A stretch of 64,000 nt of DNA from a phage: sequence record PX441839.1. One strand, given 5' to 3'. Made by a program: the position numbers and the translations under genes. The notes beneath the pieces were generated by a model. That model was given only the letters and a program-made list of their open reading frames with translations, was not told where the DNA came from and did not search any database. This document shows positions 574 through 32,899 of the stretch, piece by piece (positions within the stretch are counted from its first letter, which is position 1; each line of letters starts with the position of its first letter).

Positions 574-582
574 GGTTACTTT

Positions 583-1230: not shown

Positions 1231-1239
1231 GGAGATTAT

Positions 1240-1764: not shown

Positions 1765-1771
1765 TAATAAA

Positions 1772-1796
1772 GGGAGCTTCGGCTCCCTTTTCTTTT
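1772..1796 (+). terminator. Rho-independent terminator
   Basis: GGGAGC-TTCG-GCTCCC hairpin followed by a T-run. Confidence 0.6.
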
Positions 1797-1858
1797 AATT
1801 CGTATCTGAATATGATAAAATACGACTATCGCCTAATTTAGGAGCACAGGAGGAGACT

Positions 1859-3346: not shown

Positions 3347-3354
3347 GGTGAATT

Positions 3355-4005: not shown

Positions 4006-4018
4006 GGAGATTTTATAA

Positions 4019-5509: not shown

Positions 5510-5511
5510 TT

Positions 5512-6027: not shown

Positions 6028-6067
6028 TAGCTGCCAGTGCCGACCCTGTCGGCACATAGGAGATAAA

Positions 6068-6406
6068 ATGATTCTTGATATAATGGCAGTTCTTAAAGCA
6101 CTCTGGGGATTTGCCACTTTTATTTTGTTGGGGATTCTCAAAATTACGTATTCTGACTTCAAAAAGATGCAGGAACGTCAGGACACTCTTGAGAAAGATA
6201 TTATCCGACTCAGGAGTGAGATGGTTACTAAGGACAGTCTTGATGATATTTTTGATCGGAAGATGAAACATATTCAAGACACTATCCAGGATATACGTGG
6301 GGATCTCGCAGACATGCGAGGAGAAACAAAGGACGAGGTTACTGCCTTACGTAATGAAATCAGGACTGTTTTGAATGTAGTTTTGGAGAGAAGCAACAGA
6401 CAATGA
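6068..6406 (+). CDS. Membrane-anchored coiled-coil protein (function unknown)
   Basis: N-terminal hydrophobic segment ALWGFATFILLGILKI followed by charged heptad-like sequence. Confidence 0.4.
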   Translation: MILDIMAVLKALWGFATFILLGILKITYSDFKKMQERQDTLEKDIIRLRSEMVTKDSLDDIFDRKMKHIQDTIQDIRGDLADMRGETKDEVTALRNEIRTVLNVVLERSNRQ

Positions 6407-6864
6407 TATCTTCCCTGTTCTACGGGATGTGCTTCCTGATTGTCCTTATGAACCCTTGCGTTCGTACAAAAATAATGGCGGGGCTATGCCTCGCCTATAT
6501 TGTAATAGAGAATATGATGCTTTGGTACACAATAACCAATGTTATCCATTTCGATATTACCCTTTATCATACCCTCGGGTGGATATTGGATTCAACTCTT
6601 TTGTTTGCAGTGGGTTGTGTTTTAAGAGGAAAGAGGCAGATCCTCATCATAGCTTCCGCAATACCCCTTATGGTGTCTCAAGTGTTAGCAATCCAATATC
6701 CTTCTATGTTCCCACCTGATGTATACCAGTGGGTAATTAAAGATGCTCACATGTATTTTATTGAGATGTTTATCTTCGCTCATTCTTGGAAAGACAACAC
6801 AGTAAAAGAGTGGTTAAAGACAGGAACAGTGTTGGGCCTTGTTGTTGCTGCACATTTAGTTTGA
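6403..6864 (+). CDS. Multi-pass membrane protein (function unknown)
   Basis: 153 aa with about four hydrophobic segments; start overlaps the upstream stop. Confidence 0.4.
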   Translation: MISSLFYGMCFLIVLMNPCVRTKIMAGLCLAYIVIENMMLWYTITNVIHFDITLYHTLGWILDSTLLFAVGCVLRGKRQILIIASAIPLMVSQVLAIQYPSMFPPDVYQWVIKDAHMYFIEMFIFAHSWKDNTVKEWLKTGTVLGLVVAAHLV

Positions 6865-6883
6865 TTGATATTACAGGTGGTAT

Positions 6884-7156
6884 ATGTTAAAATTCCTAAA
6901 GGACTTGATCCGGTCCACAACCGACCCTGCCAAGGCTTCACATACAAAGCTTTGGTCGAATATCGGTATGGCTTCAATGACTGCGGTGTTTCTCTGGTAT
7001 GGTTTCAAAGGAACCCTCCCTGAGTGGTATTTGTGGGTTTATGCCCCTTCCGTTGCTGCACCACAGTTATTTAGCAAACTGATCGCCCTTCGTTGGGGAA
7101 TAAACCCCAACCAGAAGAATACAGAAGATGAATTAAAAGGAGATCCTCGTGGCTGA
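6884..7156 (+). CDS. Small membrane protein (function unknown)
   Basis: 90 aa with two hydrophobic segments; stop overlaps the start of the long fibre gene. Confidence 0.35.
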   Translation: MLKFLKDLIRSTTDPAKASHTKLWSNIGMASMTAVFLWYGFKGTLPEWYLWVYAPSVAAPQLFSKLIALRWGINPNQKNTEDELKGDPRG

Positions 7157-10100: not shown

Positions 10101-10637
10101 CTCAGGGTCCTCAATAATGCAACTTTTGCTGGAGATCTCACTGTCTCAGGAAAGGTCAATGCAACTATTGACCAATCCGAGCAAGATGTAGTGACAAAGA
10201 ACCTGCAAACTGGTAATATAACTGCAACGGCTATAACTGCTGGAAGTTTAAATGTTACTGGTGCTCTTAAGGCCCCGACTTCGGATGTTGAGGCAAACAG
10301 TGTCACTGCAAACAAGTTCATGGTCACACCTCAAGAAAGAACGCTAGATACTGGGGCATTTATCCCTGATGGAACAACCAATATCTACAATATTGTATTG
10401 ACACAGAATACAAGAATTGAGGCCCCTAGTCAACTTATTCAAGGTGGCAAGGGTGGTTCTATCATTATCTACTTGAACCAGGATGCAACTGGTGGTAGGG
10501 AGGTAACATTCTCCACAGAGTATCAAGCTCTTAATGATGGTGAAATAAATATGAACCCTAGTGGTGTTACTGTGGTCCAGTTGATGTATTCTGGACATGG
10601 AAGCATCATTGATACACTTATCCTTCCTAGAGTGTAA
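7149..10637 (+). CDS. Long tail fibre protein
   Basis: 1162 aa with many short G/T/V/N-rich beta-strand-like repeats (e.g. repeated TVNA at KTVNADTVNATT); fibre-like composition. Confidence 0.6.
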   Translation: MADDIIQLISAEADAAVDQIIEDSVRLHKVVNGTGVETVVTEDGSIIPSVRKALIDNLYFKTPPIPWRQGTQVREFNQLYSFTDVNGKATWWYAPGATNSSPVTQGDQPATDTRWRVFLDAGNMDGIYAPILSPDFKGNPRVPTPAEGDESTSIANTLWTKNAIAKAIDIALPNWDDAIFNNITVKNNSVLNNLRADGQVTFTGPKVDAVDSEFNLKKINLVGEDAEINFLWSDGSGYRTNLTPNKIFTAEMTANRVKGSYVESGEPRAVGTTMRGHGEAIFDTVHISKNERQPVDADTLSVTGITRVQNLIVEGEAVGIKSNVDGTTIAPSNINNDGHINTKSLYVSEETQLDGITRIGDVEFLGTVKGLDMNIEFDEMNLKSLNVAESLVVGGQTTMSAAVIGDVVFTGSVAGIVLPPANVDGQEIKPASVETETLDVLGETVLENLTVNGTVTGIDMSVDGTDISPSNVTTGNLTVNGQLTMNGAIQINNIDGDSVKTKTLEVSNLATVQNLTVPEEGTITGFGKVVNEQDILPNSVSVKEGLSVGGTTNLRDVNISGKVTGLNPDFGPGSTITSDTVNAKTVNADTVNATTSRTGNITVTGRILDAEGNDFALRVSPEQIGEAIKVLDIQPKTIVTKVSDEDKGSVTTGTITADNGNIGTLGTSNLTMQNGTVNGSLKVMGEILDKDGNPVAIMDIPSMIAGKDIAPKDVRSSGSVTAAVDLTVNGKAKVGGTLETGSVTVTGGLSTTGSVTVTEQLSVLGNAVVSGSLQSTGADIGGTTSVDNLIVAGTLTDAQGNPIGSVESITGKDINPRAVTATGNISTTGTITGQSGRVDESFTVGTDLGVSGKLSAGETTLGVTKTSSLETGPIKTSGISVLEGSISTGKAVTVGTDLTVTDNAVIGHVDMDFDGDRLKVVGNQRVEGNLYVTGNINGNVDISGQDINPRSVTASGNISVAGTISSDIGDFNSVEIGVSGTAVGLRVLNNATFAGDLTVSGKVNATIDQSEQDVVTKNLQTGNITATAITAGSLNVTGALKAPTSDVEANSVTANKFMVTPQERTLDTGAFIPDGTTNIYNIVLTQNTRIEAPSQLIQGGKGGSIIIYLNQDATGGREVTFSTEYQALNDGEINMNPSGVTVVQLMYSGHGSIIDTLILPRV

Positions 10638-10646
10638 TGTAAACAA

Positions 10647-10676
10647 TAGCCCCTACTAAGGGGCTATTTTACTTTT
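10647..10676 (+). terminator. Rho-independent terminator
   Basis: TAGCCCC-TACTAA-GGGGCTA hairpin followed by TTTT. Confidence 0.6.
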
Positions 10677-10687
10677 GAGGAGACAAA

Positions 10688-13186
10688 ATGATACCTTTCC
10701 CATTATTAGGTGGAAAATCACCAACTCCACCACCGCCACTTCCAAAGGGCGTTTCTGGGTACTCAGGAACTACCTACATAGGTGAAGATGGTGAAACTTG
10801 GTCTTGGAACAGGCAACTGGAGAGATGGATTAAAAAAGATCCGTTTCCAGTTGACGAAGGGCATCCTGAACACTTCATGGTGGGGCCTGCAAAGATAGGC
10901 ACAGATGGTTCTTTCCGATACTTCAATACTGTAACCAACGCTTGGGAAGATGTTCCTAACGGGAGCACCTTGGGGATGGTCCCTCTGACCCTGACAGATG
11001 AAGGCGTAAACATAGGGACATCGGTATTTGTAGAGTATCCCATTTATCAATCCGCTGGGTATGCCGTAGGTCTTGGAGGGTTCGCAAGACTGCTTGGGAC
11101 GGAGGTACTGGGAAGACCAGATCTTATGGACCTGTACCTTATAGGAAGAAGAGGGGATTTCTTTTCACCTTCTCCTGCAAACCCTGACTCCACCAACGCA
11201 ATTCTCGTAATTCGAAATGTTAAAAGGGATAGGGTGTGGAATACTTACCTGAACATGGTTGTGGAAACAAGTGATGGGGAGATGTGGGCTTGGGGAATGA
11301 ACTTCTATAATCAGTACGGCCCTTGGATAAGAAGCGGAGTAACAAGTTCCAGTCAACCACACATGAAGATAAACCCATTCTCTAAAATATCTGATTTTCC
11401 AGTACCACCTGAGAAAATAAAAGATATCTTCCCCGGTGTAACAATGGTCATAGTTGCAGACACTGACGGGAAATTCTGGTCCAAAGGGATTAACATTGGT
11501 CAGTTTAACGATATTGATGACCAAATTAGGACAGCCTGGGTAGAGATACCCGCAGATAGGTTCCCAGGGTTTAAAAAGTTTTATCGGAGTCTTAACGGAA
11601 CAGGTGCCGCCAATGATCTTGCTTACACCAACTGCGTTTGGTATTTGACAGATACAGGGATAAGACATTTTGGAAATGTGTATGGAGTGATGGACGGTTC
11701 CCCACTTGTATCTGCAACAACTAGGGATCTCCCTGACAGTAAAGTTCACTCAGCCCCTGTAGGATTGCCTGAAAGGAATGATGAGCCTAAAATAGTGAGT
11801 TTTTCACTGGCCAGATCTTCTGACTATATCCTTATTGCTGTTTGGTATGATGACCCCGAAGAGATGTATGTTGCCTATCCTACTTCTGGACTTATTTGGG
11901 ACCACGCAGATGGAGTAACGTATGGGAGGAGATTCAATAAATCCTCAGCCCCTGTAGGGAAGCATAGGAACCCCATACTGGACTTCAATAAAGAGGCCAC
12001 CCTTATAACGGGGTTTGATGGAAAATTCTATGCTTCTGGGACCCCAAGTGTAAATAACGGGCTATACTCAAGAACCAGCCCAACCACTTTTATCGACCAG
12101 AAGATGCCATCCTCTCTCGTTTATCAGGTTGAGCTATCCGACTCTGTAAACGGAAAAACTCAACTGTTGAGAAATGATAGGCGTTCTTTAATGATAGCCG
12201 ACCTTTCGGGAGGAAGCAACTACTTTGGAAATGGAACTTTCTGGAAACCAACTGCAACGATTAAGTGGCCTGACTATCCAGACGCAATTCCAATAGTGTT
12301 CAAGAATGATGGTGTCACTATCTCGGGATCTGCTGAAAGGGTAGATACGTTTTGGGGGTGGAATGTTAGCAACTACAACACTGTCAGCAGTACAGCCGGA
12401 GACCAGTACGGTGCTCCCAGTGGGGATGCTGTGCATGTCTCAGGGGAAGGGCACCTTACAATCTGGAAAGATGATAGCAGTATCCTTGTTGGTGGTTACA
12501 ACATAGGTGGAGTGTTTGGTGCTTTTAACCAGTGGAAGCAACCACAAGGTGCTGGAAGGTGGGTAGGCACAGTAAGAGAGTCTTTTACTGGCACATCGAC
12601 AGTAAGCTGCGGAACCACTATTGCTTGGGATGGAAAAGATCATTACATATTTGGCAAAAACTACTGGGATGTTGCAAACGGACAACCAGTAATAAAGTTC
12701 AGTTCCTCTGCACCTGTAAAATGGAACAGTAAACAGGGATACCCGAACCTCCCTAATTTTATAAAATGGATTCCTGCAATTATGGGATATTCTGATGACG
12801 AGGGTTCTTTGCAACAACCCTTCTTTATGTATCGGGGTACTGACGGTCTGTTTTATGCTGCGGGTAGCAATACAACAGGTGCCTTGGCGACAGGGACCCC
12901 ACCTGAGACAAGGGATGAGCAAAGATGGACTTTTGAGGTAATGAAGGGATCTGAGGTGTTTGTTGGTAAAAATGTTAAGGTTTACCACGGACACGGAAAT
13001 ACCTCTTGTTTGTTGTTCGCTTGCGAGGGAAAGGTGTACGGTGTTGGATTACCTAACAGTATGAAATGGAATGACACCGGAACCATCCCTGACCCGTTCT
13101 TCCCTGGTTTCAACAGAAGGCTTAATGAAATCACCTACCTGATGGATTTGCCGGATGTTATCTATACCCGACCAATAGAAGAATAA
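10688..13186 (+). CDS. Putative distal fibre / receptor-binding protein
   Basis: 832 aa ORF last in the fibre module, proline-rich N-terminus, W/G/N-rich body; assignment by context only. Confidence 0.35.
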   Translation: MIPFPLLGGKSPTPPPPLPKGVSGYSGTTYIGEDGETWSWNRQLERWIKKDPFPVDEGHPEHFMVGPAKIGTDGSFRYFNTVTNAWEDVPNGSTLGMVPLTLTDEGVNIGTSVFVEYPIYQSAGYAVGLGGFARLLGTEVLGRPDLMDLYLIGRRGDFFSPSPANPDSTNAILVIRNVKRDRVWNTYLNMVVETSDGEMWAWGMNFYNQYGPWIRSGVTSSSQPHMKINPFSKISDFPVPPEKIKDIFPGVTMVIVADTDGKFWSKGINIGQFNDIDDQIRTAWVEIPADRFPGFKKFYRSLNGTGAANDLAYTNCVWYLTDTGIRHFGNVYGVMDGSPLVSATTRDLPDSKVHSAPVGLPERNDEPKIVSFSLARSSDYILIAVWYDDPEEMYVAYPTSGLIWDHADGVTYGRRFNKSSAPVGKHRNPILDFNKEATLITGFDGKFYASGTPSVNNGLYSRTSPTTFIDQKMPSSLVYQVELSDSVNGKTQLLRNDRRSLMIADLSGGSNYFGNGTFWKPTATIKWPDYPDAIPIVFKNDGVTISGSAERVDTFWGWNVSNYNTVSSTAGDQYGAPSGDAVHVSGEGHLTIWKDDSSILVGGYNIGGVFGAFNQWKQPQGAGRWVGTVRESFTGTSTVSCGTTIAWDGKDHYIFGKNYWDVANGQPVIKFSSSAPVKWNSKQGYPNLPNFIKWIPAIMGYSDDEGSLQQPFFMYRGTDGLFYAAGSNTTGALATGTPPETRDEQRWTFEVMKGSEVFVGKNVKVYHGHGNTSCLLFACEGKVYGVGLPNSMKWNDTGTIPDPFFPGFNRRLNEITYLMDLPDVIYTRPIEE

Positions 13187-21092: not shown

Positions 21093-23111
21093 TTAAAATT
21101 TAATTTTCAGTGTTCGGGTGAAAGAACCAGACACTTTCACAGTAACTTCGTTTCGCACGGTATCCGAGAAACCAATACCTGCCAACTGACGATCAGACTT
21201 GGCAACCTTCATCTTAGCTGCAAGGTGTTCAAACACCTTACCGTGATCTTTAGCCAAATCGTTACGAAGATACTCATTATAGAATCCACGAGTACCCTCT
21301 GGATTGGCACAGCCCTCAAGGATGAAGAACATGTGCTTGTTTCCTACTCCTTGACCATCCCAATGGTTAGGAGAGTTCATCACCATAGAAACTTTCTGGA
21401 ACTGCTCTGTGGCGATACCCCACACTTCCTTGGACTGCTTGGTGCTGCCAATGGAGTCAAGAACCTTGATCCCGTGGATTCGAGAATACTCGAACGACAA
21501 CACCTTGACAGAACCTTTCTCACTTACAGCCTTGTCATAAACAAACTGTGTGGAGTTTCCACGGAAATCCAGTTCAACAACAAAACCTTCACGGTCACGA
21601 AGACGTTTGTTAAAGTTTTGAACCTCTACGCGATACACACCCTCAACCATACGGTTCATGTTAGGCCATGTAATGTTCTCAACCGGATTGAAAGCATCAG
21701 ATTCTCCGTATGCGTTCATATCGACATCCAGTTCAGCACCCGTGTTACCAAAACGGTTGCCAAAGTACACACGATTCCCGTTAGGTTCAATCAGGTACAG
21801 GTCAAGGTCATCTGGGTTAAACCACGACAGAGATACACGCAGTTCACCAGAAACACTACCACCCGCCGCCTTTACACGTTCCTTGATAGAGTCTGTAACT
21901 TCACCATTGTATGACCAAGAGAAGTTGTTATCCCATTTCAGCATATTAGGTGCATCTGGGTATACAGGTGCCACTAACGTCATCAGATTTGGAACATGAC
22001 GGTTTTCTACCAGAACTTCCAGAGCCTCTGCTTTAGGCAGGACGTTGGAAATAAAGTCTGCAATGCTGATCTCTTCTGCCTTGGCAGGTCCAGCCTTGGG
22101 CTTCTTAGCCGTGGCTAACAGGTCATCAAATGCATTCATCGCCTTCTTAGCTGAACGATCTGCAAACAGAACGTTATTGATAGTCAGGTCTTCTGCAACA
22201 GCATATCGACGAGGCAGTGAATCCATCATGCCCAACTCTTCAACTTTTTCCTGAGCCTTCTTGATCATGGCTTCTGTAACCAGCGCTGTCGGACGCTTAT
22301 AGTTTGCCGGGGCCATTACATTTTCCCAACGCTTAACCGCAGTTTCCAGATCCATGCCGTCAGAAAGATCTTGCAGCAGTGTACCTACCGCAGTGTTTCG
22401 GAACTTACCGAAAGCACCAAGTTCTTTACTCTTGGTCCATAAGAACGCATCACGGGACTCATCATTGTCGATATTATCAAACTCACGTTTGATTGCAACA
22501 AACTTCTCCAGTGTACCTTTGGCTTCATTGCCACGATACAGGGAGTTCTGAGCAATTAGTTCTAAAGCGGTTTCAGCAGAATCTGTGGTCAGTTCTTTCA
22601 GAGAACGTTCCAGAACTTGCTTGTTTCCACGGCTATCGTTTAACTTGGTCGGGATCTTGTCACCTCGCTCAACGTACTGGGACGGGAGAACCGCATGGAA
22701 GTGATTGAAGATGATAGTCTTCTCGTCACCAGCGCCTAAAATAACAGACCGCTCAGTACCAACCTTCGCCTGGAAGTGCAGAAACTCGTCAGTTACCTTT
22801 GCAGACTTAATAACATCCGCCATGGTATCAACCACCACCTGGTAGTAGCTTGGTACGGAGATGTCCCAAATAGTTACCATCTTGCCATCAACGAAAGTTA
22901 CAACTCGACCAAGGTCACGAATAAACTGCTTGCAGCAGTTGCAATCATATTCACGTCGCTCTTTGTAGATCAGGTTGGTTCCTTCTGGGAAAGAATCCAG
23001 GTAGGTGTTCCAAACAAGATCCTTATCCAAGGCCACCTCAAACAGGCCCGTCTTAGCCATCTTGGAAAGTTGTTTCTGCATTGCTGTTACAAAACCGTGG
23101 AAGTTGCTCAT
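21093..23111 (-). CDS. Large hypothetical protein (672 aa)
   Basis: Long uninterrupted ORF, no motif recognised; hairpin GGGGCC-TTTC-GGCCCC just downstream. Confidence 0.45.
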   Translation of the reverse strand: MSNFHGFVTAMQKQLSKMAKTGLFEVALDKDLVWNTYLDSFPEGTNLIYKERREYDCNCCKQFIRDLGRVVTFVDGKMVTIWDISVPSYYQVVVDTMADVIKSAKVTDEFLHFQAKVGTERSVILGAGDEKTIIFNHFHAVLPSQYVERGDKIPTKLNDSRGNKQVLERSLKELTTDSAETALELIAQNSLYRGNEAKGTLEKFVAIKREFDNIDNDESRDAFLWTKSKELGAFGKFRNTAVGTLLQDLSDGMDLETAVKRWENVMAPANYKRPTALVTEAMIKKAQEKVEELGMMDSLPRRYAVAEDLTINNVLFADRSAKKAMNAFDDLLATAKKPKAGPAKAEEISIADFISNVLPKAEALEVLVENRHVPNLMTLVAPVYPDAPNMLKWDNNFSWSYNGEVTDSIKERVKAAGGSVSGELRVSLSWFNPDDLDLYLIEPNGNRVYFGNRFGNTGAELDVDMNAYGESDAFNPVENITWPNMNRMVEGVYRVEVQNFNKRLRDREGFVVELDFRGNSTQFVYDKAVSEKGSVKVLSFEYSRIHGIKVLDSIGSTKQSKEVWGIATEQFQKVSMVMNSPNHWDGQGVGNKHMFFILEGCANPEGTRGFYNEYLRNDLAKDHGKVFEHLAAKMKVAKSDRQLAGIGFSDTVRNEVTVKVSGSFTRTLKIKF

Positions 23112-23703: not shown

Positions 23704-24825
23704 TTAATCTACACTTGCACTTATTTCAGTCGCAAGTCTAAAGCTCCCTTCGACCAAGCCAGGGATCTCCTCAACATTGTTAATTACAACATTTGACACT
23801 CTGACAGGAGGAGAACTCGGCAGGTAATCCTCCACCTTGCTTGCCACAACATCACCGTTTGTGTTTTTGACCACCAGTTTCGAGGCAGATCTTGATGTAG
23901 TGGTTGGAGCCTTTGTGTACGTTGTAACCTGAACAGCTTTTATCTGTTGACCACCTGGTGCTCTCCAGCTTGGGGACAGGGCTACAATTGGTGCCTTCCC
24001 TACAGTTTCAGATGCCAATGAATTCACAGCAGGGGAGTTCATAGCCCTCCCCATTGTATTTGAACCCCCATAGACGATATCTGAAATTGTTTGTGTCGTT
24101 CCTCCAGAGAAGCTACCTATGTCAGTGACACTTTGTGTTGTTCTTGTTATTTGGGGTTCACCCAAGAACTCAAAATTCCCTTCTTCATTGTATGCAGTAT
24201 ACATCCTTCCAAACATTAGTGGGTTAACAGTGTCGCCAAAGGCAACTCCATCGTACAAAGCACCAGAGAACCCTATGAAAAGTCCAGTCCCAACTGGCAT
24301 ACGCTCTGCGAAAGTGTAAGGACCAAGCGGCCCTGCCGGGGCATCTCCGTTGAGTGAGTTCCATGTCTCAAAGCTATCTTCACTGACCTTTCTTATACAC
24401 ACCTCCATGTAGTTATAACCAGGGGTGTACGATGATCGCATCAGGACTGTAGATGGGTCAACCCCATTGAACTGGTTTGTAAGTATCCCCGTCCGGAGGA
24501 ATCCTCTATTAAAGGGGAAGAATACCCGATACCCGAAGGTAAAGGTGGCATTCACTGGAGCTTCAAGAAGTATCTTCCTGACATCTATGGTGAACCCACC
24601 ATAATCTCCAGTGGAGCTTGTAAACCTGATTGCGAACACGGGGGATGATCCTCCACTCTGGGAGGCGGTCATAAGGGACCCCGGCAAGGTAGGTGATTTT
24701 ATCATAGATATTGACACACCGAGCTTTTTTGACAGGTACTCCTCAAGACCCTTTTCATAATCGTTGCTGGAATTATATGCGAATGGTGTCATATCCAAAA
24801 AATCTGTAAATCCGAGTATTGCCAT
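23704..24825 (-). CDS. Array paralog C (about 373 aa, possible lectin-like beta-sandwich)
   Basis: Shares diverged blocks with paralogs A and B (Y-x-A-[FY]-N-x-E-G; GDVVASK near the C-terminus); ATG with AAGGAG SD; overlaps the stop of micro-ORF C. Confidence 0.5.
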   Translation of the reverse strand: MAILGFTDFLDMTPFAYNSSNDYEKGLEEYLSKKLGVSISMIKSPTLPGSLMTASQSGGSSPVFAIRFTSSTGDYGGFTIDVRKILLEAPVNATFTFGYRVFFPFNRGFLRTGILTNQFNGVDPSTVLMRSSYTPGYNYMEVCIRKVSEDSFETWNSLNGDAPAGPLGPYTFAERMPVGTGLFIGFSGALYDGVAFGDTVNPLMFGRMYTAYNEEGNFEFLGEPQITRTTQSVTDIGSFSGGTTQTISDIVYGGSNTMGRAMNSPAVNSLASETVGKAPIVALSPSWRAPGGQQIKAVQVTTYTKAPTTTSRSASKLVVKNTNGDVVASKVEDYLPSSPPVRVSNVVINNVEEIPGLVEGSFRLATEISASVD

Positions 24826-24827
24826 AA

Positions 24828-25025
24828 TCACTCCTTAATTGGTGATGTTAAGACTTCTGTTACCACGAGTAGCGTGTTCTGTGCCAACTCAGGTTGAAGG
24901 AGAACCTCTGTGACCACAATGCCGACATTGGCAGAAAATTGTGGTGTAATAAGAACCTCTGTTGTCACTAAATAGACGTTGGAAAACATTGCCTGTTCCC
25001 CAACGGCGGTCATGATTTCAATCAT
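24828..25025 (-). CDS. Micro-ORF C: conserved N-module plus three 17-aa tandem repeats
   Basis: MIEIMTAVG..., then VTTEVLITPQFSANVGI / VVTEVLLQPELAQNTLL / VVTEVLTSPIKE; start overlaps the stop of paralog B (ATGA). Confidence 0.5.
   Translation of the reverse strand: MIEIMTAVGEQAMFSNVYLVTTEVLITPQFSANVGIVVTEVLLQPELAQNTLLVVTEVLTSPIKE
24831..24968 (-). repeat. Three tandem 51-bp (17-codon) repeats inside micro-ORF C
   Basis: Repeated AGAACCTCTGT(T/G)... units visible on the plus strand. Confidence 0.6.
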
Positions 25026-26089
25026 ACATCCACAACCCTCTCGCTGGAAGCAACGAACGAAAGACCTGCCAACTGGTCCCTTCCTGAAAGTGGAATAGTC
25101 ACCTTGCTAACCCCACGGGCGTAATCTTGACTATCGTTCTTTATGCTTTTCGATTTCAAAAGCTCACCATCAGAACTTACTATCTGAGATGTGATATCCA
25201 CAGACTTGCCTTGTACACTTGATCTTCCAACTAGTGTAGAGCTAACCGCAGCAATCTTCACAGAAGGGTCAAGAGTTGAAAGATTAGCTTTTGCCACTGC
25301 TGGGTTTACTAGGGTTGTTGGACCCAGCAATCCTCCCAAGTGATTATAGTTTAATCTGTTGGTAAGTGTTGCCTCCCCGTTTGGGTTATCACCTCCAGAT
25401 ACCAGTGTGTTTGGTAATGTTCTTACCGAGCAAGTTCCCAAACGCTCCTCAAGACCTTCCTTGTTGAATGCCCAATATTGGTCCATAAATGTTACCTCCA
25501 CTTGAGTGGTTGGTAACTTATTGGTGGTAAGAGGGGACCAATTATACCCAGTGCCTATTACCATTTGCTGGGGAAGAGAGTTTACAGAATCGTTTTGCAA
25601 GACAGTGCCGTCAACCCAAGCCCTTAGTCGATATGAGGTTGCAGAAACTTTACTTACTTCAAGCTCCACGTACACTGATCTTTCTGATCCCGAGTACCTC
25701 TGCATAGGGTAATCCAAAACTGCTGCCAAAGATCCAGAGGTAAACCCTCCCAACCTTAGGTCTGCGGTCATATATTCTTGGGGGATGATTACTCGGCTTC
25801 CGACCGTAAGGGTATCGCCAACATCCACAATCCAAGGCCCAATCGACGTCACAGTTGCTGCGTATGATGTCATCGTCGGAAAGAATGACACCTTATTTTG
25901 ACCAACGGTTCCGTACATGGTGCCGGATGAAATGTAGTAATCGAATCTACCTCCGTTTGAACCCACAGGGGTTTTTGGAATACAAGCGGCATTTAATGTT
26001 TGTAGCAGCAGGAGCGCATCGTTACCTTGTATTTGCCCCTTGTTAGGGAATTCCCTGAGGGAACCGAACCCATTGATGTGAAAAATCAT
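25022..26089 (-). CDS. Array paralog B (about 355 aa)
   Basis: Conserved blocks IVDVGDTLTVG, YWAFNKEGLEERLG, VGRSSVQG shared with paralog A; start overlaps micro-ORF B stop. Confidence 0.5.
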   Translation of the reverse strand: MIFHINGFGSLREFPNKGQIQGNDALLLLQTLNAACIPKTPVGSNGGRFDYYISSGTMYGTVGQNKVSFFPTMTSYAATVTSIGPWIVDVGDTLTVGSRVIIPQEYMTADLRLGGFTSGSLAAVLDYPMQRYSGSERSVYVELEVSKVSATSYRLRAWVDGTVLQNDSVNSLPQQMVIGTGYNWSPLTTNKLPTTQVEVTFMDQYWAFNKEGLEERLGTCSVRTLPNTLVSGGDNPNGEATLTNRLNYNHLGGLLGPTTLVNPAVAKANLSTLDPSVKIAAVSSTLVGRSSVQGKSVDITSQIVSSDGELLKSKSIKNDSQDYARGVSKVTIPLSGRDQLAGLSFVASSERVVDV

Positions 26090-26094
26090 ACAAC

Positions 26095-26286
26095 TCACCC
26101 CACAGTATAAAGATATTCTTGAACAAAAGCCGCTGAGTTAATCTCTGACGGGACATAATACAGATATTCTTGAACAAAAGCAACAGTATCTGTATTTGTT
26201 GGGGAGTAGTACAGGTACTCCTGAACAAAAGTCACAATCTCAGGATTAATGGCTCCACTTCCAGAGGCTGTCATCATCTCCAACAT
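26095..26286 (-). CDS. Micro-ORF B: conserved N-module plus three 17-aa tandem repeats
   Basis: MLEMMTASG..., then VQEYLYYSPTNTDTVAF / VQEYLYYVPSEINSAAF / VQEYLYTVG. Confidence 0.5.
   Translation of the reverse strand: MLEMMTASGSGAINPEIVTFVQEYLYYSPTNTDTVAFVQEYLYYVPSEINSAAFVQEYLYTVG
26098..26226 (-). repeat. Three tandem 51-bp repeats inside micro-ORF B
   Basis: Repeated GATATTCTTGAACAAAAGC-like units on the plus strand. Confidence 0.6.
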
Positions 26287-26302
26287 AGCATTACCTCAAT
26301 AA

Positions 26303-26320
26303 GACGCCCCGAAGGGCGTG
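26303..26320 (-). other. Inter-cassette RNA hairpin
   Basis: ACGCCC-CGAA-GGGCGT between paralog A stop and micro-ORF B start; only a weak T-run follows, so attenuator or processing site rather than full terminator. Confidence 0.35.
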
Positions 26321-26324
26321 TGAC

Positions 26325-27377
26325 TTAAACATTCGGTTCTTTTTCCCTTGAAGATACGAAACTGTAGTTTGTAAGTTCAGACATTGGTTTATCACTCACA
26401 TCCAAAACTGTTTCACAGAAACCTCCACGATAATCAGGGGTTACAGATTCCTTTGTGGTTGAGGATACTACCTTTCCAGTGTGATCCAGAATCTGACTGG
26501 TCACCGGAGCAGGAACTCCCGTTACCGACGACTTACCTACAGTTGTCATCTTAAAAGCCTTAATCCTTAGGTTAGGGTTCGGGCTTGGCATATTCACCTT
26601 TTGTACCATAGGGTCGCGAAGGGTTATCGGGTCCTGAGACCCTTTCGAGAGATCCCAATTAACCCTTGCGGTCCCCCAAGTGGACCCACCAGGGTTTTCA
26701 CTTCCTGCCGTTAATGTTCTTGGGACTTGGGTCACGGTTGCTCTCCCAATTCTCTCATCCCTTCCCTCAGTATTAAATGCAAAATAGATATCTTGGAAAT
26801 AAAAACTCCCCGCTGGGTTGGTGTTGGATTTCCAAAGAACACTTGTTCCAATAGCACCATAGTTGAACAGTTCCGACCCTTGACCCGCTTTCCTCAAAAG
26901 ACCGTTTACCCACATCTCGTAAGTGTATGGGTAATCAGGATGATCTGTTTTTCTAACTACCATCTCCACATACGGATTAGCTGTCCTATCTGTGTGGTCA
27001 CAAACCATGGTTAATGACGACAGATACCCATTTGAAAATCCACCAACCGCAGGTAATGAATTTGCGTGAGTAGATGTCATACCCAATCCACAACCAACCG
27101 TCAAAGCGTCCCCAACATCAATAATTATGGATGGGAGGTGAATATTCAAACATCCGATCCCTGATGGACCCAATACGTTCATTGACAACCTGTTGGTCCC
27201 AGGTAAAGATAGATTAGGGCTAGAACTCTGGTATGCATAATTTGCAAAAGTTGCACCTTGCTTTGGGCTTTGTGGGTGCCCGTACCGCAGAGAAGTTAAA
27301 ACGGTTTGGATATCGTTAGTGCTTACCAAGTTAGTTAATGGCTCCCACACAGAAAACCCCTGAATTCCGATAATCAT
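26325..27377 (-). CDS. Array paralog A (350 aa, possible lectin-like beta-sandwich)
   Basis: IIDVGDALTVG, YFAFNTEGRDERIG, VGKSSVTG blocks; SD AGAGGAAAG; ATG overlaps micro-ORF A stop (ATGA). Confidence 0.5.
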   Translation of the reverse strand: MIIGIQGFSVWEPLTNLVSTNDIQTVLTSLRYGHPQSPKQGATFANYAYQSSSPNLSLPGTNRLSMNVLGPSGIGCLNIHLPSIIIDVGDALTVGCGLGMTSTHANSLPAVGGFSNGYLSSLTMVCDHTDRTANPYVEMVVRKTDHPDYPYTYEMWVNGLLRKAGQGSELFNYGAIGTSVLWKSNTNPAGSFYFQDIYFAFNTEGRDERIGRATVTQVPRTLTAGSENPGGSTWGTARVNWDLSKGSQDPITLRDPMVQKVNMPSPNPNLRIKAFKMTTVGKSSVTGVPAPVTSQILDHTGKVVSSTTKESVTPDYRGGFCETVLDVSDKPMSELTNYSFVSSREKEPNV

Positions 27378-27574
27378 ACACTTTCCTCTATAACGTATAA
27401 ATATTCCGGCATTAAACCTATCGTACTTACATCGGGAATGATGGAGTACAAGTATTCCGGCATAATGCCTATAAGATTTACCTCTGGGGCCAGAATATAA
27501 AGATATTCCGGCATAAGACCTATGACCTCAACTGGGGCCTTTCTTACCCCTGATGCCGTCATCAATTCTATCAT
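27374..27574 (-). CDS. Micro-ORF A: conserved N-module plus three 17-aa tandem repeats
   Basis: MIELMTASGVRKAPVEVI, then GLMPEYLYILAPEVNLI / GIMPEYLYSIIPDVSTI / GLMPEYLYVIEESV. Confidence 0.5.
   Translation of the reverse strand: MIELMTASGVRKAPVEVIGLMPEYLYILAPEVNLIGIMPEYLYSIIPDVSTIGLMPEYLYVIEESV
27377..27520 (-). repeat. Three tandem 51-bp repeats inside micro-ORF A
   Basis: Repeated (A/G)ATATTCCGGCAT(T/A)A... units on the plus strand. Confidence 0.6.
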
Positions 27575-27586
27575 ACATACCCCCGA

Positions 27587-28426
27587 TTACACTTTTCTTG
27601 CATTGCTGGGAAATTCTCGTTTCTCCGTATCACCCCATATGATCCTTACAGCAGATGCACCTGGGGCATTTGAAGATCCGTGTCCAGACCCACCTCCGAA
27701 GTTTCCTCCTCGTCTACCACTCTGGTCTTCGCCTCCAGACCCACCTCTTGCACTTGTGGGGATTTGACCACCCCTGCCCCCTGCACCATTGACACCTACT
27801 CCGTAAATACCCACTCCACCACCGCCACCTGAGTTTTCACCAGATGACCCTGAGAAGTAATATCCTACAGATCCTCCACCCCCACCACCTTCCCCGCTAC
27901 CTCCAGCGGAGTAATTTGTAGAAGGGGGGTATGCATTACCTCCGTCCCCTCCCTTTCCTATATACCCTGCTGCACCTCCAGCGCCAGCACATCTTTTCCT
28001 GTCATTGGCGGAGGAGTTACTCCCTCCAGCACCACCTTTGTTTATTACCGCACCACCCATATCAGGATACGATCCTGTGTAAGGTTCCGGTCCAGAACCA
28101 AACCCTGCGACAACCAGCGGAGTTCCATCCCGAAAAAGTCCAACAACAGTTGTCCCATCATCGCTGCCTCTTGTGTGGACCTGTAGAGTCTCCCCAGGTA
28201 GCACAGGTATGTGGTTTCTCCATACTAGGTCTCCCCCAGCACCACCTCTACGTGGGAGAGGATCTGTTTGAGGCATCCCTCCTTGACCGACACACACTAC
28301 GCTAATATCTTCCACATTGTTTGGAACAACCCACAACTTAGGTGCAGTAGTGAGGGAAGTGTACTCCACATTCCCTAGTTTAACTGGAGCTTTAGTTTTT
28401 ACCGTCGCTGTCATTAATTCTAACAT
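27587..28426 (-). CDS. Glycine-rich protein with fused N-module
   Basis: Starts MLELMTATVKTKAPVKLGNVEY (resembles the micro-ORF N-module), followed by long GGxGG low-complexity tracts; start moved to the internal ATG that carries the shared motif. Confidence 0.45.
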   Translation of the reverse strand: MLELMTATVKTKAPVKLGNVEYTSLTTAPKLWVVPNNVEDISVVCVGQGGMPQTDPLPRRGGAGGDLVWRNHIPVLPGETLQVHTRGSDDGTTVVGLFRDGTPLVVAGFGSGPEPYTGSYPDMGGAVINKGGAGGSNSSANDRKRCAGAGGAAGYIGKGGDGGNAYPPSTNYSAGGSGEGGGGGGSVGYYFSGSSGENSGGGGGVGIYGVGVNGAGGRGGQIPTSARGGSGGEDQSGRRGGNFGGGSGHGSSNAPGASAVRIIWGDTEKREFPSNARKV

Positions 28427-28451: not shown

Positions 28452-28709
28452 CTAGAACGGGTCTCCATCCAAGATCGGTATTAGCTGTACCGTTAATCTT
28501 CCCACCGAAGATATTCCCAGTAGACTAGGAGATACCTCTGCGTGGAACATGTTATTTTGGTACATTGTGAATTCAGTCGATAGTGAGTACCTGCCGTAAA
28601 TTGGAGGGTTAAAGTCCGTAGTTGGCAAAGTCAGAAGTGTCATAAGTACCTCTCTAAAATTCAATGCAATTGGATCGCTGTTTATAAAACCATAAAGTCT
28701 TCCTTCCAA
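28452..28709 (-). CDS. Hypothetical small protein
   Basis: 85 aa ORF inside the array; contains an EVLMTLLTL stretch. Confidence 0.3.
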   Translation of the reverse strand: MEGRLYGFINSDPIALNFREVLMTLLTLPTTDFNPPIYGRYSLSTEFTMYQNNMFHAEVSPSLLGISSVGRLTVQLIPILDGDPF

Positions 28710-28842: not shown

Positions 28843-29379
28843 TCAAGTATATATAAACTCCCCTGTAAAGTTTACATCCGTGTATATTCCACGAAACGGA
28901 GATACAATCTTCATCAACCCGCTTACAGGGTCTAAGTACACAAAATTAGTAACCGTATATCCTAAGTAACTGGAGTAAGAGTTACTGGTGTGGTTATTCC
29001 TTGAAACCGAAATATATTGATTATAAGTAACAGTTACTGTTTTCGTTATAAGGACGGTAGAATTAGTCCGCAGCAGGGCTTGGTACGTACCATACGAAGG
29101 TGAGGCATGTTGCGCTACCAGATACCACCAAGAGTCGTAAGTTACCGAAGTTCCGTATGGGCTTCCCCACATCCTCCCGTCTGTTGAGTACACTTTCCCG
29201 ACATCATACGCCATAGTTTGGGCCGGAGCAGTGACCTCGGGTATCCAAGACCCTGCCGCCTGATTGTCAGGGATACGGAGTATTCCCCTTTGTTGGTCTA
29301 GCCATTTTAGAAACACAGGATAGGTCATGGGGCCCTCGATTGGGGCGGATGCCCCTGATACCGACAGTAACTCAAGCAT
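28843..29379 (-). CDS. Array family member with fused N-module (about 179 aa)
   Basis: Starts MLELLSVSGASAPIEG; the longer ORF-track start lies inside the upstream terminator hairpin, so the internal ATG with a GGAGAG SD was chosen. Confidence 0.4.
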   Translation of the reverse strand: MLELLSVSGASAPIEGPMTYPVFLKWLDQQRGILRIPDNQAAGSWIPEVTAPAQTMAYDVGKVYSTDGRMWGSPYGTSVTYDSWWYLVAQHASPSYGTYQALLRTNSTVLITKTVTVTYNQYISVSRNNHTSNSYSSYLGYTVTNFVYLDPVSGLMKIVSPFRGIYTDVNFTGEFIYT

Positions 29380-29397
29380 AAATCTCTCCAATATTTG

Positions 29398-29422
29398 AAA
29401 GGGGCCGAAGCCCCTTTTTTCT
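29398..29422. terminator. Hairpin terminator between the polymerase gene and the paralog array
   Basis: GGGGCC-GAAG-CCCC hairpin flanked by AAA and TTTTTT. Confidence 0.55.
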
Positions 29423-29501
29423 TTGTACAGAGGGTATTTTAACACGGACGCTTTGAATTATCCACAAGGTATAAAACCACCCCATAGAACAAGCGCATAA
29501 C

Positions 29502-29801
29502 TCAGTGACATTGCCCCCAATTAAGTCCTGTCAGATACTCACCTGTGATATGTACAGGTGCCTTCATCATCTTAGCTGCTTGTTCAACGCAACGAACAAC
29601 CATTTCACCGACAGGGCAGTAGATGATAGTGAATATTCCATTCTCATCGGGGTCGCACTTAAACTTACCTTCCTTGACACAATGACCATCCAGAACCATA
29701 CGCTTCTTGAGGCAATCCTCAACAAAAGCTTTTGCTTCGACTTCATTGTCAAACTTCCATTCCTTCTTGAACTTATTTGGAACTTCAAGCTGGTATTCAT
29801 C
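29502..29801 (-). CDS. DNA polymerase (family A), exon 2
   Basis: Translation begins DEYQLEV (motif C region) and ends ...LNWGQCH, resembling the T7 gp5 C-terminus; a TAA lies in frame just upstream, so this cannot be a continuous extension. Confidence 0.55.
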   Translation of the reverse strand, partial: DEYQLEVPNKFKKEWKFDNEVEAKAFVEDCLKKRMVLDGHCVKEGKFKCDPDENGIFTIIYCPVGEMVVRCVEQAAKMMKAPVHITGEYLTGLNWGQCH

Positions 29802-30631
29802 CAAAGTTTAGCAGGTTCGTTAATCCTGCCCACACCATTACGTGTTGCCATACGGTTTCCCGTAGGATCGGACTATATCACCACCCTTTTCAGGGTGCTC
29901 CCCATTTCGACGCCACTTGGTCGCCTACGCCTCTCGGCTAGTCTCTGAACGTTAAGACCACGTATACTTCTCGGAAATATGCTTCCACTGCCGACGCTGC
30001 TTAATGGCTCGTACTGTTGCATAGGGGAATCCCATGTCGCGTACCTCTGCCTGGCTCATTCCGCTTTCAAGAAGCTGGCAAATGGTCATCACTTCGTCTT
30101 CTGTGAGGGCACTATTAGCATTGTTGATACCTTCCGCGCTGCGACAGTTGTGGCGATAGGCGTTCTCTATGTTTTTGCCTCTCGTAACCCACTGTAGGTT
30201 GTCTTTGTGGTTATTCCTTTTATCGGGCCACTTGTGATCAACCTCTGGAAGATTGTTCGGATTGGGAACAAAACATTCTGCCACCAAAACATGGACCGCC
30301 TTTGTCGTCGCCTTTTTGTTAAGGTAAAGACTGACAATTGCATACCCTCTTCCATTATCAACATGCTTCATAGGTTTACCTCGACGACCTATAATGGTCC
30401 CGTCCTCGTAAACTTTATATCCGAAATAGTCTTTGTACTCCACGTAGTCCTCTTCGCTGCTGATTAACATAGCTGCACTTTAGTTTATTATTAACCCAGT
30501 GTCAACCTTAGCCTTCCAGCAATTAAAGGAGTTTTCGATGTAGGTTGCCCTACAAAGCCACAATGTTACTTATGGTAATAGATAATACGACGAACTCCCT
30601 CGTCATACCATCCCTTCTTGACCAGTTGCCA
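29802..30631 (-). mobile_element. Group I intron in the DNA polymerase gene (boundaries approximate, about +/-6 nt)
   Basis: On the transcribed strand: P-like AATTGCTGGAAGG, R-like GTTCAGAGACTAGCC, S-like GATATAGTCC, terminal G before exon 2; contains an HNH ORF. Confidence 0.55.
29952..30470 (-). CDS. HNH homing endonuclease (intron-encoded)
   Basis: VHVLVAECFVPNPNNLPEVDHKWPDKRNNHKDNLQWVT His-Me finger signature; paralog of the ORF in the second intron. Confidence 0.65.
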   Translation of the reverse strand: MLISSEEDYVEYKDYFGYKVYEDGTIIGRRGKPMKHVDNGRGYAIVSLYLNKKATTKAVHVLVAECFVPNPNNLPEVDHKWPDKRNNHKDNLQWVTRGKNIENAYRHNCRSAEGINNANSALTEDEVMTICQLLESGMSQAEVRDMGFPYATVRAIKQRRQWKHISEKYTWS

Positions 30632-32899
30632 GTGAAGCAAGATTCCAACCAGGTCAAATAGTGCTGCACCACCATTCTGCTGAAATGCGTTCAACAGGGA
30701 GTGCTTTGAACGAGTCCAAATCTTACGCCCATCCAAACCATAGATGAATCTTTTCCCTGTCGCTTCCCAGAATTTCTCCAGCGCTTCTTTACGACCTTTT
30801 AATCCGATGTTGCTATCCCAGAATGCGTTGATTACATCCTGTGCCTTATCTACTGTGATTCCAAGCATGGATGCAATCTTGGGTGCCTGAGCGCCGTACA
30901 TGATTCCATACGTGATACTCTTTCCCTCGCCACGAGAAACCTTCTTCCCCGCTGCCTTTGTGTATGCCTCTGCGTTTCGGGTGTGGGCGTCCCCCGACTC
31001 CATGATTTCAAGGTAAGCGCCACCATCGAACTCATACGCACCCCAAGCCGCAATCATACCTTCCAGGTTAGAACCATCAATACCCACTTGGTACTTACCC
31101 TTTGGTGCTCGCCAAAGGGAACGCATCTCATAACCAAACAACACCTTCGGATCAGGCTTAGGCATGTTTGCGCAGATCGTGTGCTTACGACGCCCAGTGT
31201 TGGTAATCCCTGAGAACCTTGCTGGTAATCGACCATCAATCTTCAAGCGTGGGTGGTTAAGAAGTCCAGTATCAACCTTATCCTCTTTCAGTGGATCAAG
31301 GACAGATCGTCGGTTACGTGCAGATAACCACTGAACAATGCCTTTAGCCATCGCACCATCCACCTTTTCCAAGTTTGGGCACAATCCCTGCTGGTCTTTC
31401 AACTGAGGGCTTGTTGGCAATGCACGGGCCTTCTTACGGAAGAATTTGAACATCTTCTCCTTGTCTGCCCACTGCTTAGGGGTAATGTGCAAGTTCTTAA
31501 GGATAAGATCACGATATTCTGTCTGATCTAGTTGCTCAATATACTCCCGCACAATTGCATCAACTTCACCATCCGGACGTTGCTTTTTAAACTGGTCCTT
31601 TGTTGCATCCTTTGTACGCCAAATTGTTGGAATCCAACCCGCATCTCGGATGAGGAACTTCTTAACATCATCCTGGTTACCGATACGCATCGGAATCATT
31701 ATATCTGGCATGGTCTTATTCTTCAAGTCCGCCAAAGCCCGTGCCATATCCTCTGGAGGTAGTGGCTCCAGTGTGGATTGTTTTTCGTTCTGACTACGAA
31801 TGAACTGAGGCATTTGATCCTCATCTTCCACCCCGTGGTCATTACAGTATTTAATAGCCGCAGCCGTAAGTGAACCATCTGCCTTAAATGCTTTAGCCGG
31901 AGGCCCCTTGAAATCAAGGGCTTCCCAATTAATATTGTATCCTAACTTCTCCAGCCATTTCCAACCTGTGCCGGACAATGTCCCGTCACCCTTGAAAGGT
32001 TTGGATGGGAAAGTTGGTTGTGCGGATTTAGCCATCTCTTTCTTCGGAAGCTGAGGCTCAACCTCTTCCTCAATCTTCTTCATGAAGGCATCAACCGTAT
32101 CGCGGAGTTTCAGCGCCGCCTCTATGTCAAAATCAACACCTTGGATTTCTTGCTCAATCATCAGGTAATCGGTAAGCATACCTCGACGAAGAGAGTCTTT
32201 CCAGTTGATCATTTTATATTTTGTTGGGACACGCTCATCTTTAAACATGAAGCGTTTATCATCTGGGTACGCATCGCAGGTGATTTCCTTCATAAGGGCG
32301 TCCCACACCTTTTCGTTGATGATAACGTCCTCAATGATACGGTCACAATACTTCCACAACGGGAGTCCACGCCAATCATCAATGGCGACTTTCAGGTTGG
32401 CTACTCTCATACCCCATGCTTCCAGACCATGAGGGCCAACAGGTTTCATCTTTCCTGTGACAGGGTTTTTAACCATTTCTGGGCAACCCTTCGGCAATGG
32501 GCGGTCAGGGTAGAGTGTACGAGACATAGACAAGGAGTCAAACAGGTTAACCTGTTTTCCATTGATCGTTCCCATGCACTTAGGATCGGCAAACATATCG
32601 TATTGTGTACCGAACAGCTTCTTGAACAGACGTAAGTCATATCCAAACAAGTTGTGAATAACAATGCTACTAGGGACTTCTGTGAACCATCTATTAAGGT
32701 CAGAGAAGTTCATTACATGCAGATTGAATCCCTTCGCATTAACGAAGTTCAAAGCCTCTTGATAACCCTCTCGCGCTGGGTCCATGAAGAGATACCAGTT
32801 ATCCTTTTTGTACTCCTTGAAGAGGATGCAGTGAGCATGTAAGTTCTCCTCGTCAAGTAAACCAGATGCTTCCGCATCACCTACCCATAAACCTTTCAT
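30632..32899 (-). CDS. DNA polymerase (family A, T7 gp5-like), exon 1
   Basis: Exo I GDAEASGL; motif A IDGSNLEGMIAA; motif B RGEGKSITYGIMYGA; the ORF-track C-terminal 21 codons (30566-30631) are interpreted as intron read-through. Confidence 0.75.

Follow-up and report, generated by a model that had tools for sequence, protein, structure and literature searches.

The present study reveals that three micro-open reading frames (micro-ORFs A, B and C), lying between positions 24828 and 27574 of a 64,000-nucleotide stretch of phage DNA (sequence record PX441839.1; this whole stretch is hereafter called the window), are, as judged from related genomes, real genes under purifying selection. Each of them is paired with a larger gene (paralog A, B or C) whose product is modelled as a lectin-like protein, and each encodes a short N-terminal element, the N-module, followed by three 17-residue repeats. 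We give about an even chance to the reading that the micro-protein is a separate, translationally coupled adaptor for the neighbouring lectin-like protein, equipped with an anchor tag and with cognate strand motifs. The window represents a Vequintavirinae-like myovirus, to which Salmonella phage SSBI34 and two Certreviruses, CR9 and PBES02, are most closely related. All features of the micro-ORF/paralog cassettes in the window are carried by its minus strand.

Micro-ORF A (27374-27574, 66 aa) begins with the N-module MIELMTASG, and the core of its repeats reads G[LI]MPEYLY. The corresponding elements are MLEMMTASG and [TA]FVQEYLY in micro-ORF B (26095-26286, 63 aa), and MIEIMTAVG and [LIV]V[TV]TEVL in micro-ORF C (24828-25025, 65 aa). 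The N-module consensus of the three is M-[LI]-E-[LMI]-M-T-A, and glutamate occupies positions 23, 40 and 57 in all of them. The coordinates, the sequences and the architecture of N-module plus 17-residue repeats are exactly as a preliminary description of this DNA had given them. When each peptide was compared with itself at an offset of 17 residues, 20/33, 19/30 and 15/32 positions were identical in A, B and C, respectively, and 17 was the best self-matching offset in the range of 5 to 29. Shuffled peptides (100,000 per peptide) reached a maximum of 10 to 12 identities, and never the observed values.

Tandem Repeats Finder detected no DNA tandem repeat across the micro-ORFs, because the repeat units differ at synonymous sites and use different codons. 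Between repeats, the 8-residue cores agree at 7 to 8 of 8 residues within peptides A and B and at 5 to 6 of 8 within C. In the majority of such comparisons, 3 to 5 of the identical core residues are written with different codons (range 1 to 5). Since the core residues stay identical despite their differing codons, the sameness of the cores is selected and does not merely stem from recent duplication or conversion. Non-coding repeat DNA was rejected as an explanation, as no DNA repeat was found and selection acts on the protein. T4-type prohead-protease sites (L/I-x-E) were also considered as the reason for the invariant glutamate, and this idea was dropped because the P3 residues are inconsistent in the alignment.

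Nineteen micro-ORF/paralog pairs were compiled from the window, from phages PBES02, SSBI34, POP15 and CR9, and from 9 assembly contigs; together they stem from about 13 related Vequintavirinae genomes and contigs. In PBES02, SSBI34 (two copies), POP15 and CR9, the cassette is annotated as two hypothetical proteins. The ratio of nonsynonymous to synonymous substitution rates (dN/dS) was 0.06 between the micro-ORFs of POP15 and contig L006 (L006_2), and 0.25 between micro-ORF C and its SSBI34 counterpart at 9831-10028. In two further micro-ORF pairs the synonymous sites were saturated, with a dN of about 0.2. Between micro-ORF B and its close relative in L008 (112-303), where synonymous sites are saturated and dN is 0.24, the cores are kept and the loops vary; type-A relatives occur in L009 and L014. 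Loss of the reading frame in related genomes had been proposed, together with missing peptide evidence, as the observation that would mark these ORFs as non-coding; the frame is conserved and under purifying selection.

An alignment of 15 micro-ORF sequences is nearly gapless. M1, E3, E23, E40 and E57 are invariant, there are zero indels between the three glutamates, and the leucine two residues after the glutamate is at least 90% conserved in repeats 2 and 3. The copy number of exactly three, as first claimed, holds for the three cassettes of the window but not for all relatives. Two-repeat forms occur in L006 (7859-7999), in L011 (2165-2314) and in P0023, which is shorter than its relatives by precisely one 17-residue unit, and three is the mode.

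A profile search with the paralog against 1.84 billion representative proteins returned 16 clusters, every one of which starts at paralog residue 1, and a micro-ORF profile search of 5.8 billion proteins returned 7 matches, all of 48 to 66 aa. A word-indexed homologue search with paralog C found SSBI34 alone, and tblastn with one micro-ORF found only the query itself. A micro-ORF pattern scan (48-nt spacer) recovers eight known micro-ORFs, including the three in the window; it gave 0 matches in IMG/VR, and 27 matches in JGI/ENA metagenome contigs with 0 true members among them. These 27 are Leu/Glu low-complexity runs and an unrelated family of 53 aa (MMELMVKTAGK...LDWYSA), which is found in L123-L146 (e.g., L125 6548-6723), is well conserved and is followed directly, in every case, by a small Zn-ribbon ORF (MMCPKCGKEM...). 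No micro-ORF family model exists in Pfam or PHROGs, and our literature searches found no description of the family. The micro-protein family is rare and previously undescribed, and its reach is limited to some enterobacterial Vequintavirinae, in which the cassettes are accessory (0 to 3 per genome).

The two genes of a cassette are tightly linked. The distance from the micro-ORF stop to the paralog start is -4, -1, +1, +2 or +10 nt, short in 19/19 cassettes and never in frame. Shine-Dalgarno sequences lie inside the 3′ ends of the micro-ORFs, as had been noticed earlier, and coupling is tight in all three cassettes of the window, with each paralog having its own Shine-Dalgarno sequence and start codon. 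The stop/start overlap described for every cassette stands for A, where the ATG of paralog A overlaps the micro-ORF stop (ATGA), but not for B and C. Paralog B probably starts at ATG 26089 (MIFHINGF), 5 nt past the stop of micro-ORF B (P0003 starts MIFSINGF), and paralog C at ATG 24825 (MAILGFT), 2 nt past the stop of micro-ORF C (its homologue begins MAILGFTG). As these homologue N-termini indicate ATG starts, the GTGA overlaps of B and C are an artefact of calling the longest ORF. Between paralog B and micro-ORF C, stop and start do share an ATGA, as the preliminary description had it.

What the cassettes show is plain translational coupling, with two products made separately. A programmed frameshift or readthrough joining micro-ORF and paralog into a single tagged protein, one of the options first raised, would fit the overlap of stop and start in cassette A and the fact that the other tagged proteins of the cluster are single chains. 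However, no slippery heptamer (X XXY YYZ) occurs in the last 60 to 70 nt of the three micro-ORFs, and the sole one, GGGTTTT, falls inside paralog A. In cassette C a stop closes the paralog frame 3 to 9 nt before the paralog start. The junction offsets, which vary among the 19 cassettes, give both +1 and -1 frame relations, while the paralogs possess their own translation signals. Neither the 1.84-billion- nor the 5.8-billion-protein profile search yielded a fused micro-ORF/paralog protein among its matches. The frameshift reading is effectively refuted.

Pairing is complete among the 19 cassettes: each paralog comes with a micro-ORF, and each micro-ORF with a paralog. Moreover, the repeat core varies together with the paralog subfamily. 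The core MPEYLY goes with the subfamily of window A, P0005 and P0007; FVQEYLY with that of window B, P0003 and P0010; VVTEVL with that of window C, SSBI34_1 and P0008; and DIEVL with the paralogs of PBES02, POP15 and CR9. This co-variation of sequences supports binding between peptide and paralog, though it is confounded by linkage.

The paralogs measure 335 to 375 aa across the cassettes. In the window, paralog A (26325-27377, 350 aa, MIIGIQGF...) has P0005 and P0007 as relatives, paralog B (25022-26098) has 358 aa counted from GTG and P0003 as a relative, and paralog C (23704-24831) has 375 aa counted from GTG and matches phrog_28811 with an E-value of 1.6e-31. The family as a whole, to which paralog A also belongs, is phrog_28811, which is rare and has no assigned function. 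In SSBI34 (L002), the second paralog (10025-11108, minus strand) is only 236 aa long and is followed by an overlapping 123-aa ORF. This ORF probably encodes the detached C-terminal domain of the paralog, which means that the gene is split or that the record contains a frameshift error.

An AlphaFold2 (AF2) model was built for a fusion of micro-C, a linker and paralog C from a 19-row paired alignment (predicted local distance difference test, pLDDT, 72.7; predicted template modelling score, pTM, 0.76). In this model paralog C consists of an N-terminal Concanavalin A-like (ConA-like) jelly roll and a C-terminal β-sandwich. The two-sheet jelly roll superposes on members of the Concanavalin A-like lectin/glucanase superfamily, and the modelled N-domain can be placed with that superfamily. 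Its fold relatives are SO2946 (2a5z), PL7 alginate lyases, GH16, GH131, SPRY domains and legume lectins, with which the paralogs share just 3 to 13% sequence identity and no profile match to those families. A Foldseek comparison with the viral models of BFVD retrieved two-domain phage proteins of about 350 aa, two of them annotated as virion structural proteins. Profile searches of the paralog in Pfam, NCBIfam and the PDB identified no enzyme family, and no family of maturases, recognition elements (RREs), proteases or transporters of ribosomally synthesised and post-translationally modified peptides (RiPPs). A receptor- or glycan-binding role would suit the modelled fold of the paralogs.

In the same 1:1 fusion model, repeat 3 of micro-C (residues 49-62) forms a 14-residue β-strand with a pLDDT of about 87, while the tag and repeats 1 and 2 are disordered. 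Structure prediction, which the preliminary description had suggested for the repeat units, therefore yields one repeat modelled as a β-strand with the paralog but leaves the other two without order. One ordered repeat in a 1:1 model is the pattern expected if each paralog offers one strand-binding site. Physical binding between peptide and paralog is suggested by this one AlphaFold model.

Two other readings draw on the same strand. The first is that the peptide is a folding or assembly chaperone, which lends a β-strand to the jelly roll and is absent from the final complex, the tag having some other use. The tight coupling, with the peptide made first, and the repeat modelled as an added strand are compatible with it, and small chaperones dedicated to phage fibres are common (a tail fibre assembly protein is encoded at 5512-6027 of the window). 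However, a chaperone leaves unexplained why one N-terminal tag heads unrelated globular proteins and why selection keeps two or three identical cores; furthermore, the genes of known fibre chaperones follow those of their clients, and these chaperones are no repeat peptides. We regard this reading as unlikely. The second is a mini fibre shaft, in which three parallel chains would form a short triple β-structure, with the N-modules plugged into the particle and a paralog trimer as a non-covalent knob. A rigid fold is suggested by the lack of indels between repeats among 15 diverged sequences, and both AF2 models give every core a strand-like form. Adenovirus and reovirus fibres have the same layout: an N-terminal anchor, then a shaft of repeats, then a binding domain at the distal end. 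Yet the repeats show no conserved Gly/Pro turn, and their period is 17 rather than 15 to 16. Two or three units would make a very short shaft, and AF2 leaves repeats 1 and 2 disordered. Known fibres carry, on the shaft chain itself, a knob that drives trimerisation, whereas the candidate knob here is a separate gene. The shaft has a small chance of being correct.

The adaptor reading also has to account for the N-module, which is not confined to the micro-ORFs. Among all six frames of the window, the N-module pattern occurs in five ORFs only, all within the cluster: the three micro-ORFs, a Gly-rich protein (27587-28426, minus strand, 279 aa from MLELMTAT, phrog_4474) and a 178-aa protein (28843-29379, minus strand, beginning MLELLSVSG, phrog_6409). 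In the last two the N-module is fused straight to the body of the protein. The codons of the tag vary at synonymous sites among the five genes, which indicates that the N-module is conserved as protein; a conserved DNA or RNA element was rejected on this ground and because the upstream regions differ. In relatives, the N-module also heads Laminin_G_3, Gly_rich_2, Kelch-like and phrog_1062 proteins at the same slot. The larger proteins headed by it measure 178, 279, 208-221, 238-258 and 310 aa, and the broader consensus across window ORFs and the relatives' proteins is M-[LIFQ]-E-Φ-[ML].

The tag extends beyond the phages with cassettes. The Gly-rich protein is 74% identical to PVP-SE1 gp018 (MFEMMLATS; L018 6001-6843), and its SSBI34 paralogue matches Pfam Gly_rich_2. 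Homologues of the 178-aa protein occur in Erwinia phage Ea35-70, a 271-kb jumbo phage, as Ea357_278 (MLEMLMG) and Ea357_279 (MLELLMY). There the two paralogous tagged proteins (167-169 aa; MLELLMYAG and MLEMLMGSK; L019 6882-9026) lie beside a Gly-rich protein. The tagged genes of both Ea35-70 and PVP-SE1 are located directly downstream of the DNA polymerase gene, as in the window. The motif is absent from the approximately 60 kb of φTE examined.

This sharing bears on the option of a precursor peptide, in which the N-module would be a leader and the three repeats would be RiPP-like cores cut out or modified by the adjacent paralog. Such a layout of one leader and repeated cores is present, the cores vary between cassettes while the leader is kept, and the invariant glutamate of each unit could mark a processing site. 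However, the presumed leader also heads globular proteins of 170 to 310 aa, the partner is modelled as a ConA-like jelly roll with no Pfam or NCBIfam enzyme match and matches no RiPP enzyme family, and the cluster contains no protease, transporter or RRE domain. Furthermore, the residues preceding the glutamate give no consistent cleavage motif. A precursor function is very unlikely.

The link between the tag and the virion comes from Pectobacterium phage CB7. In the 14 kb of CB7 examined, the sole match to the tag motif is CB7_55 (MQEMMIVTS...), which has been confirmed in purified virions by electrospray ionisation tandem mass spectrometry and is the only structural protein encoded within the CB7 replication region (PMC7344957). 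The family phrog_1062 contains both CB7_55 and the tagged protein directly upstream of the L012 cassette, and other tagged proteins match PHROGs annotated as tail, baseplate or virion. Since the tag is common to diverse proteins, one of them a proven virion component, the most likely interpretation is that it attaches every protein bearing it to a single docking site, probably on the particle.

Proteomic work on Erwinia jumbo phages was considered as additional support and set aside, as the abundant proteins RAY gp281 and Deimos-Minion gp287 are products of the neighbouring gene and are not tagged. The tagged gp282/283 (RAY) and gp288/289 (Deimos-Minion) are unmentioned in that study, which used crude lysates, and the P7_Pc paper contains no mass spectrometry. 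The micro-proteins are poor in Lys and Arg (micro-protein A gives a 54-residue tryptic fragment), and trypsin-based virion proteomics would therefore probably miss them.

Several observations weigh against an adaptor that is docked on the virion and carries its paralogs there. The cluster sits in the minus-strand replication block beside the DNA polymerase gene, outside the plus-strand tail/baseplate module at 1-13186. The virion link depends on one protein identified by mass spectrometry, whose tag is the variant MQEMM. No micro-ORF or paralog product is recorded in virion proteomes, and the Certreviruses with proteomic or cryo-EM data (CB7 and φTE) have no cassette. When the paralog profile was compared with the 832-aa and 1162-aa tail proteins of the window in search of a docking partner, no similarity appeared. 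An AF2 model of the peptide with three paralog N-domains, built to see whether each repeat takes up one paralog copy, had low confidence (pTM 0.35, peptide pLDDT 22-27). Two-repeat variants sit within the same subfamilies as three-repeat ones, so that a strict 1:3 complex is not obligatory.

The position of the cluster bears on a further reading as well, namely that the paralogs and the tagged lectin-like proteins are intracellular effectors, which bind host molecules for takeover or anti-defence and are recruited by the tag to one shared factor of phage or host within the cell. The cluster lies among early/middle replication genes and has a σ70-like promoter ahead of it (PMC7344957), which favours such effectors and is another point opposed to the virion adaptor. 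Their accessory distribution resembles that of many anti-defence loci, and SPRY-like folds bind peptides. On the other hand, a tagged family member has been found in the virion, the LamG, Gly_rich_2 and Kelch domains are of kinds typically met in phage adhesins and fibres, and fold relatives of the paralogs are annotated as virion proteins. We hold intracellular effectors to be rather improbable.

The adaptor reading, which of the options first raised is favoured by the coupled pair in 19/19 cassettes, the co-variation of repeat and paralog, the strand docked by AlphaFold and the tag shared with a virion protein, can be put as a mechanism. Residues 1-9 at most (7-9 residues; M-[LIFQ]-E-Φ-[ML]-T-A) would constitute a portable anchor tag, which would dock the adaptor at a site, probably on the phage particle, that all tagged proteins share. 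The remainder would consist of two or three 17-residue units, each with an 8-residue core x-x-x-x-E-Φ-L-Φ in which the glutamate is invariant, and each core would add as a β-strand onto its cognate ConA-like paralog. A single peptide could thereby bind as many as three copies of the paralog, or bind one copy with high avidity. Cross-binding among the three pairs of the genome would be prevented by their different core codes (MPEYLY, FVQEYLY and VVTEVL).

A more specific version of the adaptor, which we offer tentatively, is a viral 'micro-scaffoldin'. Here a virion-docking tag would be combined with two or three identical donor strands at a 17-residue pitch, one lectin being captured per strand, so that lectins would line up side by side at a single attachment point. 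The three mutually orthogonal peptide-lectin pairs of one genome would then have arisen as the strand motif was duplicated and recoded. If true, phages would have a means, so far undescribed, of mounting multivalent binding modules and exchanging them.

The consequences of the adaptor reading, if it is correct, concern both phage biology and its use. Accessory binding proteins would be attached through a tag short enough for primer grafting, and 65-residue adaptors would have their specificity set by an 8-residue strand code. Foreign binding domains could then be loaded onto phage particles through a minimal, programmable handle, and a natural set of orthogonal peptide-protein pairs would be at hand. 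The cassettes also illustrate that a micro-ORF annotated as 'hypothetical' and lying upstream of a phage gene can encode a conserved subunit rather than a leader peptide.

Putative expression signals lie ahead of the cluster and within it. A promoter-like element (TGGATA-17-TGTTAAAAT), a GC hairpin (GGGGCTTCGGCCCC) and a Shine-Dalgarno sequence lie at 29397-29464 on the minus strand, ahead of the first N-module gene, and this sequence pattern is likely the start of the cluster transcript. A similar order of promoter-like element, hairpin and Shine-Dalgarno sequence is found upstream of cassettes in L005 (~460-520), L006 (~7780-7850) and L008 (~50-100). The extended -10 element reads TGTTAAAAT in the window and TGTGGTAAAATA in relatives, followed in each case by the GGGGCTTCGGCCCC hairpin and the Shine-Dalgarno sequence; the arrangement may serve expression as a conserved signal, or may stabilise the 5′ end. 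Within the cluster, a GC-rich hairpin (ACGCCC-TTCG-GGGCGT, 26303-26320, minus strand) lies in the 38 nt that separate paralog A from micro-ORF B. As read from its letters it is possibly a weak terminator or an RNA-stabilising stem, and the terminator scan made no call there.

Other elements of the region were recorded alongside. An 85-aa ORF with neither a PHROG match nor an N-module (28452-28709, minus strand) separates the two proteins that carry the tag directly. On the downstream side of the cassette slot, and set apart from it by a few small ORFs, a 672-aa DUF8224 protein (phrog_1735; 21093-23111, minus strand) is kept in most of the longer loci examined; it shows weak hints of P_proprotein and PARP_reg. 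The family-A DNA polymerase gene (exons 30566-32899 and 29502-29804) is interrupted by a group I intron at 29849-30581 on the minus strand (Rfam RF00028, 54 bits, E 1e-11), which bears an HNH endonuclease ORF at 29952-30470. This gene is uninterrupted (876 aa) in SSBI34 and split in PBES02, CR9, φTE and CB7, in some of them several times. The plus-strand module at 1-13186 comprises a baseplate wedge protein, an Ig-domain tail fibre and the 1162-aa tail fibre, with the tail fibre assembly protein inside it, and its 832-aa protein (10688-13186) has no PHROG match.

Phages are known to attach receptor-binding proteins through adaptors or anchors, as in gp37 of K1-5 and SP6, gp63.1-gp66 of G7C, the branched tailspike (TSP) complexes of CBA120 and the N-domain attachment of gp38 in T2 and S16; in TP901-1, BppU holds three BppL trimers. 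These adaptors are the closest systems in function. As proposed for the cassettes, they present alternative binding modules with one conserved N-terminal attachment element, a separate adaptor carries the modules that have no attachment element, and modules are exchangeable among related phages. Different distal modules behind one N-terminal element, the hallmark of a shared anchor, are found in five window ORFs and in the relatives' proteins. In contrast, the known adaptors and anchors are folded domains of about 100 to 300 residues and usually trimeric, whereas here an anchor of 7 to 9 residues heads a tandem-strand peptide of 46 to 67 aa. Also unlike the known systems, the cassette genes lie in a replication block, and their products are putative virion components.

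Strand-addition motifs offer a second comparison. LC8 binds to TQT motifs that stand in tandem in Nup159 or ASCIZ, and chaperone-usher pili use donor-strand complementation. As predicted for the cassette, in LC8 clients and donor-strand systems a short strand motif, repeated in a disordered chain, adds to the β-structure of a partner, and LC8-type motifs likewise combine an invariant anchor residue with variable specificity residues. There is, however, no relationship in sequence or fold; the cassette has a rigid spacing of 17 with linkers free of indels, and its partner is modelled as a ConA-like jelly roll. The triple β-spiral shafts of adenovirus fibre and reovirus σ1 are built of 15-16-residue repeats with a Gly/Pro turn, alternating hydrophobics and a trimerising knob on the same chain, whereas the cassette has a period of 17, conserved Glu and Leu, no Gly/Pro column and a knob candidate encoded by a separate gene, and it does not qualify as a triple β-spiral.

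The cellulosome scaffoldin, with its cohesin-dockerin pairs, resembles the cassette, as interpreted here, in combining an anchor with repeated docking sites; its specificity types coexist without cross-talk, as the three core codes of the genome would allow. There, however, the docking sites are cohesin domains of 150 aa and the short dockerin is on the enzyme, whereas in the cassette the short element is on the scaffold, at a roughly 10-fold smaller scale. Taken together, the micro-ORF system is best read as a variation on the phage adaptor and anchor theme.

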